A DNA stretch of 39,964 bases from a virus (lineage: Duplodnaviria; Heunggongvirae; Uroviricota; Caudoviricetes), in IMG/VR virus record IMGVR_UViG_2711768042_000003; one strand, given 5' to 3'. Below are positions 1,535 to 34,600 of the stretch, in pieces. The position numbers were made by a program, and so were the translations under genes. Numbering within the stretch: the first letter of the stretch is position 1; each line of letters opens with the position of its first letter. The notes beneath the pieces are model-generated. The model was not told the DNA's origin. It worked only from the letters and a program-made list of their open reading frames with translations, and did no database searches.

Positions 1535-4500
1535 TCAGCTGATACTGATGCCTGCGGTGGCTTTCTTCATCACCACAACCAGCAAATCACTGATACTTGC
1601 TGTGGGATACCAACCATTTACCCACCATGCTGATACAGAAAACTCCAGCGTCATGTGACCGCGACCAGCAGGCATATCAATAACACCACTGTAAACCAGC
1701 GTATTATCCAGCGCGGTACGGTTATAAATTTCAGCACCGTTTTTCTTCACTATCAGGCGGCATGACGAATAAGTATCGCTGTTCTCCCGCTCATGTCTGG
1801 CACCGCTGAAAGCCACCGCCGGAATAACAATCTGCCGGTCAAACGGCTGATCGTCATAAACCCTGACGGTAATGGTCCCTGATGGCCACCGCTCCGGTGC
1901 ACGGGAGTCCCGGGGGAAAGCTTTGCCCACCGTTTTAACAATATCGCCTTCAATCTGGTTGGCTGACAGTTTTCCCAGAATCCGGCAGTTCTGATTAATC
2001 GTGACATTGTTGAGCGTCCCGGAGTTCGCATTCACGTTACCGCTGATATCTGCATTTTTCGCCGTCAGCCGCCCGTCCGGTGTCAGGGAAAATGCCGGAG
2101 GATTACCGCCGCTGGTAATGGTGGGAGCCGTCAGGTATTTCAGGAACACTTCGTTCATGAATATCTGATCGCCCTGACCAACAAACATCGGCTTTGTGTT
2201 GCCATTCGCAGGATTAATCATCGCAATCCTGTCCGCCGCCAGCAGCACCTGACTCTGCATACCGTCAGGGGTATTCTCAATACCGGCACCAATACCCGCG
2301 ATATAAAGGCGTCCGTCCTGCATCTGCTGCAGCTTCACAGCCCACATGCTGTTCAGGTTATTATTTGTATCAACCTGAACCTTCTGTATCTGCTGGATTG
2401 CCGCACTCTGGTCTTCCAGTTTCTTATTGACGGTCTGCGTGATTTCATTACTGACATCCGTGATGGACGTTCTGATTTCCGCCAGGTCAGGCGCAAGCTG
2501 ACCGTTATCAATCTGCGTCCACAACTCCTGAGCCAGATGGGTTTTCCCTATCTCTCCTTTGAAAAAATTCAGATAGCCGGATGCATCATCACTCGGCTGG
2601 CCAACAGCCTCCACGAATGCCGATTTGCCAACGGTGTTCACACTGCGGATGTAAAAATAATAATCATGGCCCGGTTTGATATTGATACTGGCGGCTATCC
2701 AGTACAGCGCCGTGCCAAGATAGCGTGCTGTGGTTTCAACCTGCCTGATATCCGCAATCCGCTTTTCCGAGAACCAGAACTCAAACTGTACCGTCGGGTC
2801 ATAAACGGCAAGATGCGGCGTGGCGGTTATCTGAAAATACCCCGGTGTCAGCTCAATCCGCGACGGTGCTGCCGGTGCGGCAATCCGGAACGATACCGAC
2901 GCCGGATCGCCCTGCTGCCCCCAGGCATTTGCCGCCCGGACTGTCAGCCTGTAGTTTCCCAACGCCAGTTGCGTGAAGCGGTATGTGGTTTCCGTCGTCC
3001 GGGCCGTGCTGACCAGCCGCTCACTGCCGTCATCCGCTGCCACGGTCAGGCGAAGCATAAAGCTCACGCCCTTCACCACCTTCGGCGTGTCCCAGCGCGC
3101 CAGTACCTGATATTCCCCGCTGTCTGCGGTGACTTCGGCAGTCAGGTGCTGCACCGCTGGCGGCGTGACACCATTCACCGTGCCACTCTGGTCGCCGTCA
3201 AAGTGCGCCCCGTTATCCACGATGGCCTCTTTCTCCGGCACATGCTGCACGGCGGTGATGGCATACGTGCCGTCGTCGTTCTCACGGATACTCACACAGC
3301 GGAACAGGCGCTGACGCAGCATCGGCAGCTTCAGCCCCCACACGCTGTATTCGGCAACGCCGTCAGGAACACGGCTCACTTTTACCTTCACGCCGTCGGT
3401 GACGGACTGGACCTCCACGCTCACCGGATTACCCTGCCCGTCAACCAGGCTTATCAGCGTGGTGCCGGAGGATGGCAGCGTGATTTCACGGTCGAGCGTC
3501 AGCGTCCGGGTCTGGCTGTTCACCGCCAGCACGCGCCCGCCAATGCTGATCCCCGCATAGTCATCATCGCAGATTTCAATAACATCACCCGGTACATGGC
3601 GCAGCCCTTCTGCACCCACGCTGAAGTCCACGGTCTGCGTTTCCAGCAGTTCCGTTTTAATCAGCCACAGCCCGGCGCGGTGCGCCTGCCCCCGGCTGGT
3701 ACAGCCAAAGGCATCCATTTTCGTGACGTTACGACCGTAACGGGCAATGGCCTGCGTGTCCTCCACAAGCTCTGTTGCCGTTTCCCAGCCGTTATTCGGG
3801 TCAATCCAGTTCACCTCAACGGCATTATGGCGGTCCTTCAGGGAGCTGAAACTGTAGCGGAACGGCGCGCCATCATCCGGCATCACCACATTACTGCGGT
3901 TATAGGTCCACACCTTATCCGACGGCCGGTCCTGCACGAACGTCAGCGTCTGCCCGTTCCATACCGGCATACAGCGCATCGCCGAGCAGAAATCACTGAG
4001 CACATCCCACGCCTTGCGCTGTGTGGTCAGGTACGCATTACAGGTGATGCGCGGCTCCGTGCCACCAAAACCATCCGGCACCGACTGGTCGCAATACTGT
4101 CCGATGACATACAGCGCCCATTTGTCCACATCCGCCGCACCAAGACGTTTCCCCATGCCGTAGCGCGGATGGGTCAGCATATCCCACAGACACCATGCCA
4201 TGTTGTTGCTGTATGCCGGTTTAAACGTTCCGTCCCAGATACCGCTGTATTGCCGCCTCTGCGGGTTATAGTTCGACGGCACCTGCAGAATGCGCCCGCG
4301 AAGATGATAATTACGACTCACCTGCTGGCTGCCGAACTGTTCCGAGTCCACCTGCACGCCGACCAGTGCCGTGTTCGGGTAGCACTGTTTCACATCGATG
4401 ATTTCGGTGTATGACGACCAGAGCGTTTTGTTCTGCAGCTGGTCTGTGGTGCTGTCCGGTGTCATCCTGCGCATCCGGATATTGAACGGGCGCGGAGGCA

Positions 4501-21500: not shown

Positions 21501-21518
21501 GTGCGACCACGGTCGCAC
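21501..21518. promoter_or_regulatory. centromere-like palindrome GTGCGACC-AC-GGTCGCAC (sopC-core-like)
   Basis: Perfect 8-bp arms, 2-bp spacer; one of five copies in the window. Confidence 0.55.
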
Positions 21519-21720: not shown

Positions 21721-21738
21721 GTGCGACCACGGTCGCAC
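21721..21738. promoter_or_regulatory. centromere-like palindrome GTGCGACC-AC-GGTCGCAC
   Basis: Identical to the copy at 21501-21518. Confidence 0.55.
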
Positions 21739-23439: not shown

Positions 23440-24516
23440 TTACTCAAATAACTTTTTCACTTCATCAACTGTCTGAAGATAACGTTCACCCTCAATCTCA
23501 ATACCGATTGCCTGACGACCTAACTTCAGCGCGGCTTTAATAGTAGAGCCTGATCCCATAAAGAAATCGGCAACGATATCTCCGGGGCGGGAACTACTTT
23601 TTATAATATGTTCCATCATCGCTGCAGGTTTTTCACATGGGTGCTTGCCAGGATAATATTGCACAGGAGGAAACTCCCATACATCGGTATAAGGTACATC
23701 AGCAGTAACATGAAATGGGCGGCGCAAATTTTCATACTGAGCCTTCAAATCATCATACTGCTTCTTTACTTCCTCATAACGCAATTTCAGATCGCTATAA
23801 CGCTTTTCATGTTCTGAATAATCAACATTAAAAGGATATGGACACGGGACACCGAGTGAATCTGCCTTCCTGCGAAATAATTCGCATAGTTTATTAAAAT
23901 CACTTAATGATGGAAGCCGCCACTGCGAATAAGAAAACCAGTGCGAACACATCTGCTTTCCTGTTGCTGAATTAATGTCTGCGGCTGATATATCTAACTG
24001 ACGGCGAGCCAGCGAAAAAGCATCAATTAGTGGAGAAAAAATATTTTTTCTTAAATCTGCACATTTTGAAGCATAACCTGACTGACCTTTAGCATAACCT
24101 GACGCGCCGTAATGCTCTGCAAATAATATTCTTTCAGTGGCAGGAAAATAAGCCCTTAAACTTTCTTTATGACAACCGCGCCACATACCACTGGGTTTAG
24201 CCCAAATGATATGGTTCAGAACATTGAAACGGTCGCGAGTTAATAATTCAATTTTTGACGCAAGGCGAGAGCCGGTAAACATATACAGGCTGCCATTAGG
24301 GGCCAATATCCGCCAAAATTCTGCCAAAAATTCATCAATCCACCCCAAAAAGTCAGCATCGCTATCCCACTGGTTATCCCATGCGTTAGCCTTTACGCCG
24401 AAGTATGGTGGGTCTGTTGCAATCAAATTGACCGAGTTATCAGGGATGGTTTTGATAAATTGCAGAGAATCTGCGCAAACGAGTTGCGCGCCATGAATAT
24501 TAGTGGTTTTGAACAT
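23440..24516 (-). CDS. DNA N6-adenine/N4-cytosine methyltransferase (orphan)
   Basis: DPPY catalytic motif near the N-terminus, C-terminal FxGSGST AdoMet motif; start taken at MFKTTNIHG, upstream ATG at 24561 possible. Confidence 0.85.
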   Translation of the reverse strand: MFKTTNIHGAQLVCADSLQFIKTIPDNSVNLIATDPPYFGVKANAWDNQWDSDADFLGWIDEFLAEFWRILAPNGSLYMFTGSRLASKIELLTRDRFNVLNHIIWAKPSGMWRGCHKESLRAYFPATERILFAEHYGASGYAKGQSGYASKCADLRKNIFSPLIDAFSLARRQLDISAADINSATGKQMCSHWFSYSQWRLPSLSDFNKLCELFRRKADSLGVPCPYPFNVDYSEHEKRYSDLKLRYEEVKKQYDDLKAQYENLRRPFHVTADVPYTDVWEFPPVQYYPGKHPCEKPAAMMEHIIKSSSRPGDIVADFFMGSGSTIKAALKLGRQAIGIEIEGERYLQTVDEVKKLFE

Positions 24517-24650
24517 AGCTATTATTTTTTTGCCTGGGTAAGCTAACCCGGTGATGCGCATCGCGGGTGGGCTTTAGGTTCAGCCTATAGCTCTGGCATG
24601 GGTTGACCGCAGGACAAGCTGCAACTTGTCCTGCGCCCACTTTTCAGGCA

Positions 24651-24676
24651 CAAAAAAACCGCCATAAAGGCGGCTT
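24651..24676 (-). terminator. intrinsic terminator in the late leader
   Basis: Minus-strand GCCGCC-TTTAT-GGCGG followed by seven U; an 11-bp stem hairpin lies at 24609-24636. Confidence 0.45.
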
Positions 24677-24712
24677 GTTGGCTGTTGGGTACAAAAAACC
24701 CAACTTAACAAA

Positions 24713-24741
24713 ACAATAACTAAAAACCGTAATTTTGCCAA
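24713..24741 (-). promoter_or_regulatory. candidate late promoter (-35 TTGGCA, 17 bp, -10 TATTGT)
   Basis: Sigma70-like hexamers on the minus strand upstream of the methyltransferase-lysis operon. Confidence 0.4.
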
Positions 24742-24758
24742 GCTTTTTCGTTTTTGTG

Positions 24759-24780
24759 CTGTGCGACCGTGGTCGCACAG
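24759..24780. promoter_or_regulatory. centromere-like palindrome, extended form CTGTGCGACC-GT-GGTCGCACAG
   Basis: 22-bp perfect palindrome 18 bp upstream of the candidate late promoter -35. Confidence 0.55.
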
Positions 24781-24783
24781 TTT

Positions 24784-25011
24784 TTAGAAAGTTGCCTGCT
24801 TATATTCATCGGTCAAAGAATATCGACCAGACCCGCTACGCTTTGCAACCCCAAAACAGATCATCTGTTCGATGATAAATTCAACGGCAGCTTGACTCAA
24901 AAAACAGGCTTCGCTTAACTCTTTCAGGGAAATGCGTGGGTATCCACGCATAACACATTCCACACTCAGGGCCGCTTCAGTCATATTTCCACGAATTTCA
25001 TTAATATTCAT
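24784..25011 (-). CDS. small winged-helix-like DNA-binding protein (hypothetical)
   Basis: 75-aa ORF, second gene of a two-gene minus-strand operon. Confidence 0.5.
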   Translation of the reverse strand: MNINEIRGNMTEAALSVECVMRGYPRISLKELSEACFLSQAAVEFIIEQMICFGVAKRSGSGRYSLTDEYKQATF

Positions 25012-25024
25012 AACGCCTCTCTAA

Positions 25025-25264
25025 TCAATCTTGAAACTGGAAATCAACATCAGCCATAAAGCGGTTCAACTCAGCCAGTTTTGGCCCCATAGTCCCAACT
25101 AAGCGACCAGCCAGTCGGTCTGCCAGGTTGGTACTGTTGAAACCATATTCCTTTTCGAAACGTTCAACCTTCTGCCACAACTCATACAGTTCGTTAGCTA
25201 TCTCCGCAACGTCGTCGCGCATTTTTTCGTTACCTTGATAATTCATAATATCCTCCAAATTCAT
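25025..25264 (-). CDS. hypothetical protein
   Basis: 79-aa ORF divergent from the toxin-antitoxin pair. Confidence 0.5.
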   Translation of the reverse strand: MNLEDIMNYQGNEKMRDDVAEIANELYELWQKVERFEKEYGFNSTNLADRLAGRLVGTMGPKLAELNRFMADVDFQFQD

Positions 25265-25411
25265 ATAGTTAGTGGGTTATTGCCCCTCAATGACACGAAC
25301 TGTAACTCTGCCAAACGAACACATCCAGTGTTATTTTTCACTTTTTAGTGAAATTTTTAATTTGCGCTTTTTTCTTGTTTTGGTGTATTTTATGGCTATG
25401 GAGGCTATAAT

Positions 25412-25723
25412 ATGTTTAACGTGATAACCCACCCTGCAGCACTGGATGAACTGCTTGAACTACCAGATGATTTGCGAGGTCGCATGACCAGATTAATTGA
25501 GCGACTGGAGAAGGAAGGCAACAAACTGAAGATGCCCCATAGCCGTGTAATAGGTGGAGGGCTTTTTGAACTACGAGTAGGGGATAAAAACATCGCAAGA
25601 ACGCTGTACGCCTACGCGACTGGTAACGAAATTTATCTATTGCATGCATTTGTAAAAAAGACACAGAAAACACCGGTGAAGGCTATCGAAATCGCCAGAA
25701 CTCGCCTGAAGGAGATGAACTGA
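25412..25723 (+). CDS. RelE/ParE-superfamily toxin, Gp49/HigB-like
   Basis: 103 aa; GGAGG RBS; toxin-first order with ATGA overlap onto an XRE antitoxin. Confidence 0.75.
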   Translation: MFNVITHPAALDELLELPDDLRGRMTRLIERLEKEGNKLKMPHSRVIGGGLFELRVGDKNIARTLYAYATGNEIYLLHAFVKKTQKTPVKAIEIARTRLKEMN

Positions 25724-26010
25724 TGAAAGCGAAAGGCATCCCGTTTAACGAAGTAAAAGAAAAACTTCTCAACACTCCAGAAGCCATCAAAGGATATGAA
25801 GAGGCCGATAAAGAGCTGGAGATGGTCGAAATGTTATACGAAATGAGGGAAAGAGCAGGTTTAACGAAGTCAGCTCTGGCTGAACGAATGGGATTGCGCC
25901 CGTCAGCTATCAGCCGCCTGGAAAGCAATCCTTTAGGGGCAAGCATGAAAACTTTATCAAAATATGCCCAAGCATGCGGTGCAACGATTAATATTAATGC
26001 CGTCTATTGA
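25723..26010 (+). CDS. HTH XRE-family antitoxin (HigA-like)
   Basis: 95 aa with XRE-type HTH (LTKSALAERMGLRPSAISRLE). Confidence 0.75.
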   Translation: MKAKGIPFNEVKEKLLNTPEAIKGYEEADKELEMVEMLYEMRERAGLTKSALAERMGLRPSAISRLESNPLGASMKTLSKYAQACGATININAVY

Positions 26011-26053
26011 TTAGACCCTTTTCGCTACCCCGTCCAGAAGGGCGGGGTGTGTA

Positions 26054-26272
26054 TCAATGATGCAAACACTCAACAGCAATAACTTGTTGGCAATTCTGAG
26101 CAATCTCCCGCGACATACTAACAAGTCGTGAAATCTCGCCAAGATGCAAGCTGGCTTCTGGAGAAGCCAGAGCAACGCTAACCAGATCTAAAACGGCGTC
26201 GATGTCTTTTAGGTTTGATCCGAGTTCTTCAAGAGTTGATACAGGTGCTTCAGTCATTGAATCTAATACCAT
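26054..26272 (-). CDS. hypothetical small protein behind a LexA-box-like site
   Basis: 72-aa ORF, start 23 bp from the CTGT-N8-ACAG site. Confidence 0.5.
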   Translation of the reverse strand: MVLDSMTEAPVSTLEELGSNLKDIDAVLDLVSVALASPEASLHLGEISRLVSMSREIAQNCQQVIAVECLHH

Positions 26273-26294
26273 TTAATTAAAAAAGGTTATTTGA

Positions 26295-26312
26295 TACTGT
26301 ATAAAATTACAG
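26295..26312. promoter_or_regulatory. LexA-box-like site TACTGTATAAAATTACAG
   Basis: CTGT-N8-ACAG with AT-rich spacer, matching the SOS box consensus. Confidence 0.5.
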
Positions 26313-26514
26313 GGTAAAACTCAAATTTTATAGCCAACTTTCAATGGATTAACTGGTTAAATATCTTTGTAGTCCGATACTTATGTTCCCTTCCTACGCC
26401 TCGCCCAACCACTTTCAAAAGCCCATCACCACCATCAGAAAAGCTCTTTTCGCTCCGTTTTCGTATCATTTCAAAAAGCAATGCCTTTTTGTCCATTTAT
26501 CCCTCCGTGACCAG

Positions 26515-26841
26515 TCACACTTTGAGCGCAAGTTTCAGCCTCGTGGTTGTAAGGTGGCATGAGCCTTCACCATCAAAAATGCATTCTGAAACAGGCATTT
26601 TTTGACCACATCGCGGACAAGTAGTAGATAGCTGTTTCTGCAACTCCTTATAGTTTTTCCTGATCAGCAGTCCGATGACTTCGTTCTCTGAATATGGAAC
26701 TCGCCCTGGTCTACGCAATACACAAATTTCCCCCAACATACGTAACTCGTCAGGTTCCAGAATCCAGTCACGTCTTGATGTTCCTTCCTTCTTCAACCGT
26801 TCCCTGCGTCTTCTTTGCCGTTCTGCCGGTGTCAGCGCCAT
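26515..26841 (-). CDS. hypothetical protein with Arg-rich N-terminus and Cys cluster
   Basis: 108 aa; ERQRRRRERLKK at the N-terminus; CPRCG...C...C motif. Confidence 0.55.
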   Translation of the reverse strand: MALTPAERQRRRRERLKKEGTSRRDWILEPDELRMLGEICVLRRPGRVPYSENEVIGLLIRKNYKELQKQLSTTCPRCGQKMPVSECIFDGEGSCHLTTTRLKLALKV

Positions 26842-26856
26842 AAATCCTCCTAAAAA

Positions 26857-27447
26857 TTACTTAACCCAATTAACTACACCGCCAGCGGCCACAACCGCTT
26901 TTTCACAGTCACGCTCATATCTCAAAGGTTGAAATACACCATCAATAAAATATTTATCTCCACCACATGCTGCTGGAAGTGAAACAGAAAACTGAATACG
27001 ACCATCATCTGGCATTTGCTCACTACAGCTTATCCAACCATCCGGAGTTACCGGAGAGTTGCCAGACAGCTTGTTCAACTTGTAAGTCTGGCTTACAGGT
27101 TTGACACCGTGAAGCATGGTGGCGCGGCAGGCGTTCCAGCCTTCATCAAAACCGACTATGCCATTATTTAAAGTCGGACGAGCATCTGGCACCACCGGCA
27201 CTGGCTTGGCTATATATAGCGGCTGAACATACCAGCCCTTTGATAACCAACTGTCAGCAATGTTTTTACTCCTGGTTATTGCTGGAATACCTAAGCCATT
27301 GTCTGAATGTAGCCATGCCACCGGCTCCTCTTCCAGCGATGCCAGTGCGATTTCATAAGCTCGGCGCTCAATATTGTCTCGAACGTCCAGGCTACCGATT
27401 CGCTCTTTGATTTCTTTAATCAGTTCTTTGTCGGTAAACGTGATCAT
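26857..27447 (-). CDS. hypothetical phage protein
   Basis: Start MITFTDKEL overlaps the upstream stop as TAATG. Confidence 0.55.
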   Translation of the reverse strand: MITFTDKELIKEIKERIGSLDVRDNIERRAYEIALASLEEEPVAWLHSDNGLGIPAITRSKNIADSWLSKGWYVQPLYIAKPVPVVPDARPTLNNGIVGFDEGWNACRATMLHGVKPVSQTYKLNKLSGNSPVTPDGWISCSEQMPDDGRIQFSVSLPAACGGDKYFIDGVFQPLRYERDCEKAVVAAGGVVNWVK

Positions 27448-29557: not shown

Positions 29558-29783
29558 TTTCTTGTGCGACCACGGTCGCACCCTCTCTGATTTCCAAGTA
29601 ACGCTTAATCCAAAGATTTTCTATATGCTTATTACCTGGCTGATTTGATAAATACCAATCGGCAATTACAGACTGCTTATTACTATCTGGTCGTGTCCTG
29701 TAACCACAAGTTGGACACCAGATAACATATTCATTTCTTACCCCCGAATACCTTAATTCCGGCTTCGACGGTTTCCTGAACAT
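29538..29783 (-). CDS. small zinc-ribbon protein (hypothetical)
   Basis: CPTCGY motif; start taken at internal Met to avoid overlap; the longer ORF reaches 29858. Confidence 0.45.
   Translation of the reverse strand: MFRKPSKPELRYSGVRNEYVIWCPTCGYRTRPDSNKQSVIADWYLSNQPGNKHIENLWIKRYLEIREGATVVAQENENNAI
29564..29581. promoter_or_regulatory. centromere-like palindrome GTGCGACC-AC-GGTCGCAC
   Basis: Overlaps the 3' end of one ORF (encoding ATVVAQ) and the initiation region of the next. Confidence 0.55.
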
Positions 29784-31645: not shown

Positions 31646-34600
31646 ATGACATTAAACGATTTCTATGCGGATCGCTTTGGCAGCGATCCGTTCTCGCTAA
31701 TTGAAGCAGCACGGGATGAACTAACCGAGCTGGCACAGATGGCTGGTATCAACTGGTCTGCCTGTTCCGACAACATCCAACTCAACCCTCGCGGGGGTGT
31801 TGAGCGTTACTCTTCATACAATAAAACATCTCCAGAAGCTCTCGAAAAGAGCCTCAAAGGACGCGTAGAAATTTACTCCCGGCTGGAACACAGCAAAGGG
31901 ATTGATTACCCGTTCATTAACTTCGTCCATAAAGGCAGCGATGCTGGCTCATGGAGCGGTTTCTCCTTCCTGTTTTCTGAATATCGCCGTGAGCAACAAC
32001 GGAATAATGCGACCGTGGTCGCACAACCGGAAGAAGAACGGGCAAGAATAGAACGTCAGGCCGAAGCACGTCGTCGCCGTGAAGAACAAAAACGAATTAA
32101 TGACCTGAAAAACAACCAAATGGACCATGAACGTTTGCTGGGATGGCTGGCATTCCACAGCGCGTGGGAACATGCTCCTGCAGAAGACGGCTCATGGCCA
32201 TATGCGATTAAAAAAGGTATTCGTGACGTTTTTAATTCGTGTGATGTGCGTCGCGTGACCAGTCACGACAGCGCAAAATGGAGCAGGGGGCCAACCACGT
32301 ATATGGCTATCCCTCTGGCTCACCTGGACGGTCGTTACGATGGTCGTATTGTGGGTTGGCAGCGAATCGACAAACAAGGTGGAAAATACCAGACCAGCGC
32401 CGTAACCAGCGGCGATTTCGTCGGTGCCTGCTTTGTTATCGGTGAGCTAAAAGGGGCGCAAAACATCGCTGTTACAGAAGGTTTTGCTACTGGTGCATCC
32501 ATCTGGCTTGCCACGAAAAAAGATAAACGCTTTGACGCTGTGGTTGTCGCTGTATCCGCTAATAACATGGTTCATGTTGTGGAACAACTGGTAAACATGT
32601 ACCCGGCGGCAAAAATCACCTGCGCACTGGATAATGACCGGAAATCAGCCACAGAAGGAAAAGGGAATACCGGCCTGCGGACTGGCTATGAAATCTTATC
32701 GAAATTCAACGATGTCCGCTGCGTCTATCCAACTTTTGAAGACGATCCGCAAATGGAGTGCAGTGACTTCAACGACCTGCACAAACTGCGTGGACTTCGT
32801 GAAACAGCACGTCAACTGTTTGCAACTGCAAACCGCCTGAAAACCGGCACTGATTTGCTATCTCTGACGCTCAACCGCCTGAAGACAATTAAGCGGGATA
32901 ACCGTCGTACTTTTGCCAAAGAGCTGCTGAGAGCGGTGGATATTGGCATGCTAACCTGTCCGGTTCCTAACAGTCCGTCAGACTTATTTAACATGTTCTG
33001 CATCGTTCTGCGTGAAATGGGGCTGGAAAATATCTATCGCGCTACGGTAAAAGACCACATTGCCCGTCGCCTGAATAAAAAGTGCCGTATTGCCCAGGCT
33101 CCGCGCTCATTCAGCGAACGCATAACTGATCCCAATAAACGTCCTCAACATATCACCTATAAGCGTTTTGAAACTTCGGTAATGACCGATGACGTCCTGA
33201 AGTATGTGCAATCACTACAGGGGATAGTCATCGTTCGTGCTGGTATGGGTTCCGGCAAATCTACTGGATTGTTACGACCTTTAATGCATAGCTCAGAACG
33301 TGGTATCTCTGTTGCTCACCGTGTTTCCCTTATTGGTGGCCTGTGGGAAATGATGACAGAAGGAAAAGGTGTAAAAGCCGATATCCTGCACTATCAGGAC
33401 CCTGGCTATCAGGAAATGGCTCCATACGCCAGTAAACTGACCATCTGCATAAACTCGATTGTTAAAAACTGCTGGCAACCGTTGATGCGCCAGCACGACT
33501 ATTTTGGCTTTGACGAGGCCACGCAAGGGCTACGTGCCGTTCTTTCCGGTCGGGCTATGGAAAACCCGGTGGCTGTATTCAATACGTTAATCGACGCGCT
33601 GGCCAGAACGGAACAACACCCAATAATGGTGGATGCTGATGCGAACGATCTGCTGGTTGACCTGGCTGAACTGGCTATGAAACGCCGTGAAGAACTAGGT
33701 TTACCGGCATGGCTGCAGATCCACGTAATTGAATTACCTGTTGATGTTCGCAACCGCGAAACAGGTGAGCCAATCCGGGTTTTTTATACAGAAAAAGATC
33801 GCATTATGACCGAGGTGGTGAAAGCTGTATCGGATGGCGAAAAAATCATGTTGGCCACCGACAGCTCCACCTTTGCAGAAGATGTGACAGCCACCCTGAG
33901 AATGCATTTTCCTGGTAAGAAATTTCTGTGTGTAAACCAGAAAAACAAACCAGAGCCAGAAGTTGAAGCATTTACCAATCAACCGAAAAAGATGGTCAAA
34001 AAATACGACGGCCTGATTTATAGCCCGTCTATTTCATCCGGTGTGTCGATTGAGCAAAAACATTTTGACCGTCATTTCGGCATGTTCTGTGGTGAAGTTG
34101 TACCCAGCGACGCAGTGCAAATGCTACGCCGCGACCGTACAGCAAAAGAATTTATTATCGGCTTTGATAAAGCTCGCGCAAAACGTGAAACTGACCCGCA
34201 AAAAATAGAACGAGCATTCGCCCAGGCATTGCTTGCTACCGCAGGCATGAACGGTGAACTGACGGATGTCGTTTTCGATGGCGACCGTATATCAATGGGG
34301 GTGGCCAATACCGACTTTACCAGGATGAAAATTAAAGCAGCCGCAATTGAAGCGTCTGCGCGTAACGACTACGCCAGCAACATGATCTGCATCATGCACA
34401 GCGACGGTTATAAGGTATCGCCGCTGGCCACCGATTATGCTGCGAATGATATCGGTAAAGATCTGCGTAAAGAAGCGCGGGATATTGTGTGGGAACAGAC
34501 ACTGGATCTGCATCTCAATACAGAAACTCCACAAGAATCAGAGCGTGAAGAACTGCTAAAAAAACGCGCGCTGACGCTTGAAGAACAAGCAAAACTTGTC

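Follow-up and report, generated by a model that had tools for sequence, protein, structure and literature searches.

Positions 24784 to 26010 of the viral record IMGVR_UViG_2711768042_000003 (39,964 nucleotides, referred to here as the window) contain four small genes arranged as two divergent pairs, a toxin-antitoxin pair on the + strand and a two-gene operon on the - strand. By its gene content and neighbourhood, which equals that of N15 genes 47 to 52, this 1227-bp block is best read as the part of an N15-like linear phage-plasmid that covers genes 48 to 51, and the N15 gene numbers are used below. The four open reading frames (ORFs) had been proposed by an earlier sequence-only reading of the window at 25412-25723 (+), 25723-26010 (+), 25025-25264 (-) and 24784-25011 (-), and all were found at those positions. 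With the start of gene 50 revised as described below, the genes and features are:

25412..25723, + strand: toxin gene, orthologue of N15 gene 49 (Gp49/Tad family, RelE/ParE superfamily), 103 residues; from the ORF, Pfam and identity to N15 and phiKO2.
25723..26010, + strand: antitoxin gene, orthologue of N15 gene 48 (XRE/Cro-type helix-turn-helix, Ata-like), 95 residues; from the ORF, Pfam and phrog_1373.
25025..25246, - strand: orthologue of N15 gene 50, YubE family, 73 residues, predicted two-helix hairpin; from PF27407, phrog_4830 and an AlphaFold2 model.
24784..25011, - strand: orthologue of N15 gene 51, predicted stand-alone winged helix-turn-helix protein, 75 residues; same operon as gene 50.
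25336..25353, no strand: inverted repeat TTTCAC-TTTTTA-GTGAAA, a candidate operator for the antitoxin, immediately 5' of the presumed promoter of the pair; from sequence and conservation.
25362..25404, + strand: putative toxin-antitoxin promoter and toxin ribosome-binding site; proposed from sequence and conserved blocks.

Two details of these gene models differ from those first given. The toxin/antitoxin junction had been described as an ATGA overlap and is in fact TGATG, an overlap of 1 nt (toxin TGA at 25721-25723, antitoxin ATG at 25723-25725; the junction reads ...CTGATGAAA). The divergent ORF given as 79 residues most likely encodes 73, starting at its second ATG (25246), because GGAGG lies 5 nt upstream of this codon, the first ATG has no Shine-Dalgarno sequence, and MNYxG is the N-terminus of its homologues in N15 and phiKO2 and of plasmid YubE. 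It follows that the divergent spacer is 25247-25411 (165 bp, 34% G+C) and not 25265-25411, the interval to which the promoter region had been assigned. The gene 51 ORF begins 13 nt downstream of gene 50.

All four genes are clearly coding and under strong purifying selection. Compared with N15 and phiKO2, the proportion of nonsynonymous differences (pN) was 0.06-0.17 across the four genes, while synonymous sites were saturated (proportion of synonymous differences, pS, 0.64-1.0). For toxin and antitoxin against N15 the values were pN 0.06-0.07 and pS 0.65-0.78 (0.058 and 0.65 for the toxin gene), and such low pN at saturated pS indicates that this pair is strongly constrained. Genes 50 and 51 gave pN 0.11-0.17 against pS 0.64-1.0, and the four-gene divergent arrangement was kept in 53 of the 54 viral loci carrying this toxin, including L012, a distant phage in which gp50 is 45% and gp51 41% identical to the window proteins. 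The two divergent ORFs are thus real and conserved genes, and a lack of conservation, which would have counted against the sequence-only reading, can be set aside.

The toxin belongs to Pfam family Gp49 (PF05973, E=2.5e-29, 101.6 bits against a cut-off of 23.9, residues 12-100) and is 92% identical to N15 gp49, the namesake of that family, and 91% identical to phiKO2 Gp49. Among solved structures, its best sequence match is to a chain of a HigB toxin (6af3_A, E=5.5e-5, residues 24-101). The antitoxin carries an HTH_3 domain (E=1.6e-12, 47.7 bits against a cut-off of 23, residues 38-88), falls in phrog_1373 (E=3.4e-36) and shares 86% identity with N15 gp48 and 83% with phiKO2 Gp48; its helix-turn-helix is weakly similar to HipB antitoxin structures. 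The proposal that a toxin of the Gp49/RelE superfamily precedes an XRE-type antitoxin in toxin-first order was therefore borne out by the family searches and by the identity to the N15 proteins. In RefSeq, N15 gene 49 is labelled ‘type II toxin-antitoxin system RelE/ParE family toxin’. Assignments of either protein to NsnC, HipB, RmrA or capH (NCBIfam, PADLOC) were rejected, these being domain-level or generic matches only.

The pair has the composition of the Tad-Ata class of type II systems, in which Tad toxins (COG4679/DUF891, RelE RNase-like, N15 gp49 included) are coupled to Ata antitoxins that bear an Xre/Cro helix-turn-helix (Makarova et al. 2009). Pfam describes PF05973 as ‘Phage derived protein Gp49-like’, and the same study counts N15 gp49 in the toxin family. 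According to its title, as given in citing papers, the study of Dziewit et al. 2007 (J Bacteriol 189:1983) reported that the linear prophage N15 encodes a tad-ata-homologous toxin-antitoxin stabilising system. In the window, the toxin falls in the Gp49/DUF891/COG4679 family and an XRE/Cro-type antitoxin gene lies directly downstream of it in one operon. From the title and the citing texts, we take gp49 and gp48 to be the genes that Dziewit and colleagues tested in 2007. By homology, then, the pair is to be regarded as the already known N15 gp49/gp48 module and not as a discovery. A paper on Klebsiella telomere phages terms a RelE/ParE toxin-antitoxin pair ‘novel’, without reference to the work on N15.

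The context of the block was that of a phage-plasmid, as previously suggested. At the DNA level 24784-26010 shared 96-98% identity with two Escherichia phages, PhiR46_1 and YDC107_1, the latter placed in Ravinvirus; identity with phiKO2 of Klebsiella was 76%. Outside the block the window matched the same phages over the protelomerase, the origin-binding protein (RepA), cI, Q and lambda-like structural genes. These matches identify the window as an N15-like (Ravinvirus) linear phage-plasmid, the sequence crossing the cos junction as in the prophage form. Against N15 itself the DNA of the toxin-antitoxin pair was too divergent for megablast, its synonymous sites being saturated. Copies of the whole 1227-bp block with 100% identity were found on RefSeq plasmids of E. 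coli and E. fergusonii, where the genes are labelled as RelE/ParE-family toxin, helix-turn-helix protein and, in one record, ‘YubE family protein’. The block was present in 16 of 5426 complete E. coli genomes, on a plasmid every time and in 0 chromosomal places, and 34 of the 35 PLSDB records with the block are classed as non-mobilizable. Window positions 1-23065, holding the head and tail genes, shared ~95% identity with mEp332, Kati, Turner and similar integrating lambdoid phages, so that the phage-plasmid is mosaic, its morphogenesis arm being lambda-like and its plasmid arm N15-like.

The spacer between the two pairs holds the inverted repeat TTTCAC-TTTTTA-GTGAAA, which had been put forward as an autoregulatory operator. 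The repeat is present at 25336-25353 and such a role is plausible, but taken alone the repeat does not go beyond chance: perfect repeats with 6-bp arms (gap 3-9 nt) appeared in 27% of 2000 dinucleotide-preserving shuffles of this AT-rich spacer, and the weight of the dyad therefore comes from its conservation. The dyad was invariant in N15, phiKO2 and YDC107_1, while the spacer elsewhere was 88% conserved on average, and it stood at the same distance from the toxin start codon in most of the 37 distinct upstream regions among the 54 collected viral loci. In the most divergent phage (L012/L060; toxin ~73-75%, antitoxin 52% identical) the same position reads TTTCTA-TTTTAA-TAGAAA, both arms having changed with the dyad kept, and the recognition helix of the antitoxin differs as well (QSGINSLM versus PSAISRLE). 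In L057 (1-5279), a locus with a related toxin-antitoxin pair (toxin 80% identical) that lacks genes 50 and 51, the upstream region contains no dyad and two direct TTTTAGTTAAAT repeats, and since these accompany the pair in the absence of gene 51, the repeats are tied to the pair and not to gp51.

Downstream of the dyad we placed a candidate toxin-antitoxin promoter at 25362-25391, with a -35 element TTGCGC (25362-25367) and a -10 element TATTTT (25386-25391) separated by 18 nt, followed by a ribosome-binding site GGAGG (25400-25404) for the toxin. N15 and phiKO2 keep a TTG..G block, a GT(A/G)TATTT block and the GGAGG.

Several observations weigh against so simple a picture of operator and promoter. 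Uncompensated changes of one arm (TTTAAC, TTTCGC, TTTCTC, GTTAAA) occur in several close relatives and direct repeats take the place of the dyad in L061 as well as L057, so that the geometry of the operator is uncertain. In many relatives of the N15 and phiKO2 type another GTGAAA stands ~18 bp further downstream, over part of the probable -35 element; in the window this copy is degenerate. The dyad lies upstream of the presumed -35 and outside the -35/-10 region, and the promoter at 25362-25391 was not called by a consensus promoter scan. In all, the dyad is likely, though unproven, to be the antitoxin operator.

It is unlikely, by comparison, that the dyad acts instead at the RNA level, as an intrinsic terminator of low strength or as an insulator that separates the divergent units, or that it is a site for another protein such as gp51. 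The N15 record annotates this same stem-loop as a ‘putative rho-indep. transcription terminator’; on the + strand UUUUUAAUUU comes after the predicted hairpin (-6.2 kcal/mol, z=-3.6), a rightward promoter-like site lies upstream at 25242-25269, and a protein with a DNA-binding fold, gp51, is encoded next door to a dyad that stands outside the presumed core promoter. However, with no more than 6-7 base pairs, most of them A-T, the stem does not come near the stability of the real terminators in the vicinity (hairpins of about -13 and -21 kcal/mol), and the upstream promoter-like site is at chance level, the scan having returned 3 sites where 3.4 were expected. The changes of both arms in L060 together with the antitoxin recognition helix, and the repeats that accompany the pair of L057 without genes 50 and 51, likewise speak against these readings.

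The scan identified no promoter for genes 50 and 51, and no convincing sigma-70 promoter for them was seen by eye. Between 25293 and 25328 the blocks ACGAACTGTAACTCTG and CACATCCAG were invariant across N15, phiKO2 and the window; they matched no promoter or known site and may be the promoter or operator of genes 50-51. An Rfam scan of 24300-27000 (E<=1) returned four matches, all of which were rejected as far under their gathering scores (RyhB, 26 bits against 55).

We therefore read the block as a gp49/gp48-type addiction module with a separate gp50/gp51 operon beside it, an explanation to which, as a whole, we give a probability of roughly 0.85. Genes 49 and 48 would make up a type II module of Tad-Ata type (Gp49 toxin/XRE antitoxin), both read from one toxin-first transcript, as their 1-nt overlap and the ribosome-binding site indicate. 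From its family, the toxin would be a RelE/HigB-like mRNA endonuclease, presumably ribosome-dependent. The N-terminal part of the antitoxin would bind and neutralise it, while a dimer of the C-terminal helix-turn-helix would repress the operon, probably at the TTTCAC-N6-GTGAAA dyad by the promoter. On loss of the low-copy linear plasmid prophage, the labile antitoxin would decay and the toxin would arrest growth of the daughter cell. The module would in this way stabilise the prophage alongside the Sop partition system, a role that has been reported for N15 and that the high identity of both proteins suggests here. Some reserve is called for in that toxicity, neutralisation, stabilisation and RNase activity are carried over to this pair from N15 and other family members. 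Proteomics of NAR688, a lysogen of a related Klebsiella telomere phage, recovered nine phage proteins, under a gene numbering that could not be resolved and with no toxin-antitoxin pair named among them. This also counts to some degree against the reading, although proteomics data often lack small proteins.

RelE-family and other toxin-antitoxin systems are able to act in phage defence, and the pair might serve mainly as a defence, abortive-infection or superinfection-exclusion device for the lysogen population, with addiction secondary. We regard this as quite unlikely. Homologous Gp49-type toxins are also encoded by integrated prophages, those for Shiga toxin (Stx) among them, for which addiction is a less obvious benefit, and residues 43-95 of the toxin partially match the C-terminal part of the PADLOC candidate defence protein NsnC (E=2.6e-7); this match, however, spans just the RelE-like domain of a 293-position profile and does not amount to membership. 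There are no other defence genes within the block, which in E. coli is exclusively plasmid-borne, and the published phenotype of the N15 orthologue, so far as title and citing papers convey it, is stabilisation. Defence and addiction are compatible with each other.

The operon facing the addiction module encodes gp50 and gp51, the first of which had been described as an unknown protein. It belongs to the YubE family: all 28 of its homologues carry the precomputed Pfam label PF27407 (YubE), the protein matches phrog_4830 (E=3.6e-40), and in BLASTP it aligned with plasmid YubE over 73 of 73 residues (34% identity, E=4e-13), a full-length match in keeping with the RefSeq product name ‘YubE family protein’. 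It is 81% identical to N15 gp50 and 70% identical to phiKO2 gp50. The AlphaFold2 model is a two-helix hairpin (helices 3-34 and 41-72; predicted local distance difference test score, pLDDT, 73), with which a fold search returned generic coiled coils only. No match to gp50 was found in NCBIfam or PADLOC, and the literature searched, including that on the yubD/yubE/yubF neighbours, gave no function for YubE or gp50.

By tblastn, YubE homologues of the gp50 type were found in at least 5000 plasmid records at ~34% identity, mostly IncF/IncI conjugative plasmids of Enterobacteriaceae. In all five plasmids inspected (L010, 3324-4222; L011, L067, L068 and L069) the yubE gene starts directly after a gene for a 225-residue N6_N4 DNA methylase. 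Four of them have an antirestriction gene, annotated as ArdA or ‘antirestriction protein’, a few genes further down, and the fifth stretch ends before reaching that point. The cluster adjoins partition genes.

The second protein, described as 75 residues and winged-helix-like, is confidently predicted by modelling to be a stand-alone winged helix. The fold of MarR/ArsR-type regulators is present, and gp51 shows neither membership in a curated family nor flanking dimerisation helices, its 75 residues making up the bare domain only. Every Pfam match was under its cut-off (HTH_24, 17.7 against 21.9), and NCBIfam and PADLOC gave none. The gp51 group is narrow, with 31 matches among 1.84 billion representatives, ~20 of them proteins of 70-80 residues. 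The DUF1380 protein that follows plasmid YubE was considered as a counterpart of gp51 and rejected, there being no similarity.

Genes 50 and 51 form a separate conserved module and are probably not part of the toxin-antitoxin system, since in L057 the pair occurs alone and since YubE is found in thousands of conjugative plasmids by the methylase, with no Gp49 toxin nearby. That they are functional parts of the system, as an extra regulator or chaperone or as a second pair sharing the control region, is very unlikely: the four genes lie together around one 165-bp spacer holding further conserved blocks (ACGAACTGTAACTCTG, CACATCCAG) in nearly all viral loci with this toxin, yet this co-occurrence is confined to a single phage lineage and may be synteny only, neither protein matched a toxin, antitoxin or defence family in Pfam, NCBIfam or PADLOC, and in L012 gp50 and gp51 (45% and 41%) have evolved much faster than toxin and antitoxin (~73-75% and 52%). 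The L057 pair sits downstream of a 433-residue ORF that enters from the end of the locus and is probably a protelomerase; beside it are another small RelE-like/helix-turn-helix pair and a TnpB-like ORF.

As to what genes 50 and 51 do, our best guess, held with low confidence, is that this small pair serves as a DNA-binding regulator or in establishment, in connection with the neighbouring methylase and late-promoter region. A more specific proposal, that gp50, gp51 and the N6_N4 methylase make up an establishment/anti-restriction module common to telomere phage-plasmids and the leading regions of IncF/IncI plasmids, is speculative and rather improbable. In such a module, on entry into the host, the YubE hairpin could modulate either the orphan methylase or a factor of host restriction or defence, and the winged-helix gp51 would link expression with the neighbouring centromere site and the late promoter.

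The surroundings of the block contain the following additional features:

21501-21518, 21721-21738, 24761-24778, 29564-29581 and 32007-32024, no strand: GTGCGACC-NN-GGTCGCAC palindromes; from a sequence scan.
24741-24713, - strand: predicted promoter TTGGCA-N17-TATTGT (-35 at 24741-24736, -10 at 24718-24713); conserved, annotated as late promoter in phiKO2.
24676-24656, - strand: predicted intrinsic terminator upstream of the methylase and lysis genes; annotated as terminator in phiKO2.
26054-26272, - strand: 72-residue ORF convergent with the antitoxin gene; phrog_6301, with a weaker match to an anti-repressor family.

The palindrome nearest to the block, CTGTGCGACC-GT-GGTCGCACAG, lies at 24759-24780, 5 nt past the gp51 stop codon. 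Its 18-bp core is present in 5 copies in the window where 0.15 would be expected, and the copy at 24761 aligns with a phiKO2 site annotated ‘putative plasmid partitioning site’; the five palindromes are probably dispersed N15-type Sop centromere sites. In L012 the position just past the gp51 homologue (3243-3262) is occupied by TTTGGGACCACGGTCCCAAA instead of the N15-type palindrome. We take TTTGGGACCACGGTCCCAAA to be an F sopC-type core, and the position of the centromere thus appears to be kept in L012 with a different specificity. The late promoter and terminator suggest a Q-antitermination leader, because phiKO2 annotates both at this place, and transcription of genes 50-51 is directed straight into this region. 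Between the late terminator and the methylase gene, at 24608-24635, there is a palindrome with 14-nt arms and no spacer (CGCAGGACAAGCTG/CAACTTGTCCTGCG, 93% complementary), common to N15 and absent from phiKO2.

The gp52-type methylase downstream of gp51 (23440-24561, - strand, 373 residues) is of the N6_N4 family like the plasmid methylase, to which it is 54% identical over the region of the S-adenosylmethionine (AdoMet)-binding motif. Its residues 44-361 span the 221-position Pfam N6_N4_Mtase profile, and it must therefore contain an insertion of ~100-150 residues relative to the profile and to the 225-residue plasmid enzyme. The ORF begins ~15 codons before the start given in the YDC107_1 annotation. 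As a match of the plasmid YubD-type methylase, the small phiKO2 enzyme gp42 was rejected, the two having no similarity. On the other side of the block, a hairpin at 26023-26051 (-20.6 kcal/mol) separates the antitoxin gene from the convergent 72-residue ORF, whose promoter contains a LexA-type box, CTGT-N8-ACAG, at 26312-26297. A homologous ORF lies unannotated at the same place in the N15 RefSeq record (L003, 4164-4403), and the 72-residue ORF is a good fit for AntC, the antirepressor under SOS control that has been described for N15.

Set against known systems, the toxin-antitoxin pair brings up the founder of the Gp49 toxins again, in a phage-plasmid closely related to N15, and its sequence is identical to ones that RefSeq already annotates. 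The N15 genes 49/48 (Tad-Ata-type) belong to the same element lineage and share the toxin-first order, the place between antC/gene 47 and genes 50-51, and the upstream dyad; at 92% and 86% protein identity the window differs from them by sequence drift only (8 and 13 amino-acid differences), and from N15/phiKO2-like relatives in that their second GTGAAA-like half-site over the -35 is degenerate here. The archetype of Tad-Ata systems is tad-ata of Paracoccus aminophilus pAMI2. HigBA (Rts1 HigBA; structures 6AF3/6AF4) is likewise toxin-first and combines a RelE-superfamily toxin with an XRE-type helix-turn-helix antitoxin, but the window toxin belongs to Gp49 (PF05973), has no HigB-type Pfam match and is only weakly similar to the solved HigB, so that by analogy the pair may work as HigBA does while belonging to a sister family.

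What is added by the present analysis is that genes 50 and 51 are real and under selection, that the gene model receives two corrections, and that gp50 is linked to YubE, an uncharacterised protein encoded next to a methylase in thousands of clinically important conjugative plasmids. To know what YubE does would be of practical value in the study of plasmid establishment, and that matter concerns YubE rather than this window. Plasmid YubE (IncF/IncI, PF27407, in the leading-region anti-restriction cluster) and gp50 are both 73 residues long, align end to end at 34% identity, and are both encoded near an N6_N4-family DNA methylase. The two settings differ in that plasmid yubE comes directly after the gene for the 225-residue methylase and before DUF1380 and ArdA-type genes, whereas gene 50 precedes the winged-helix gene 51, and the gene for the 373-residue methylase follows downstream past the centromere site, the late promoter and the terminator.

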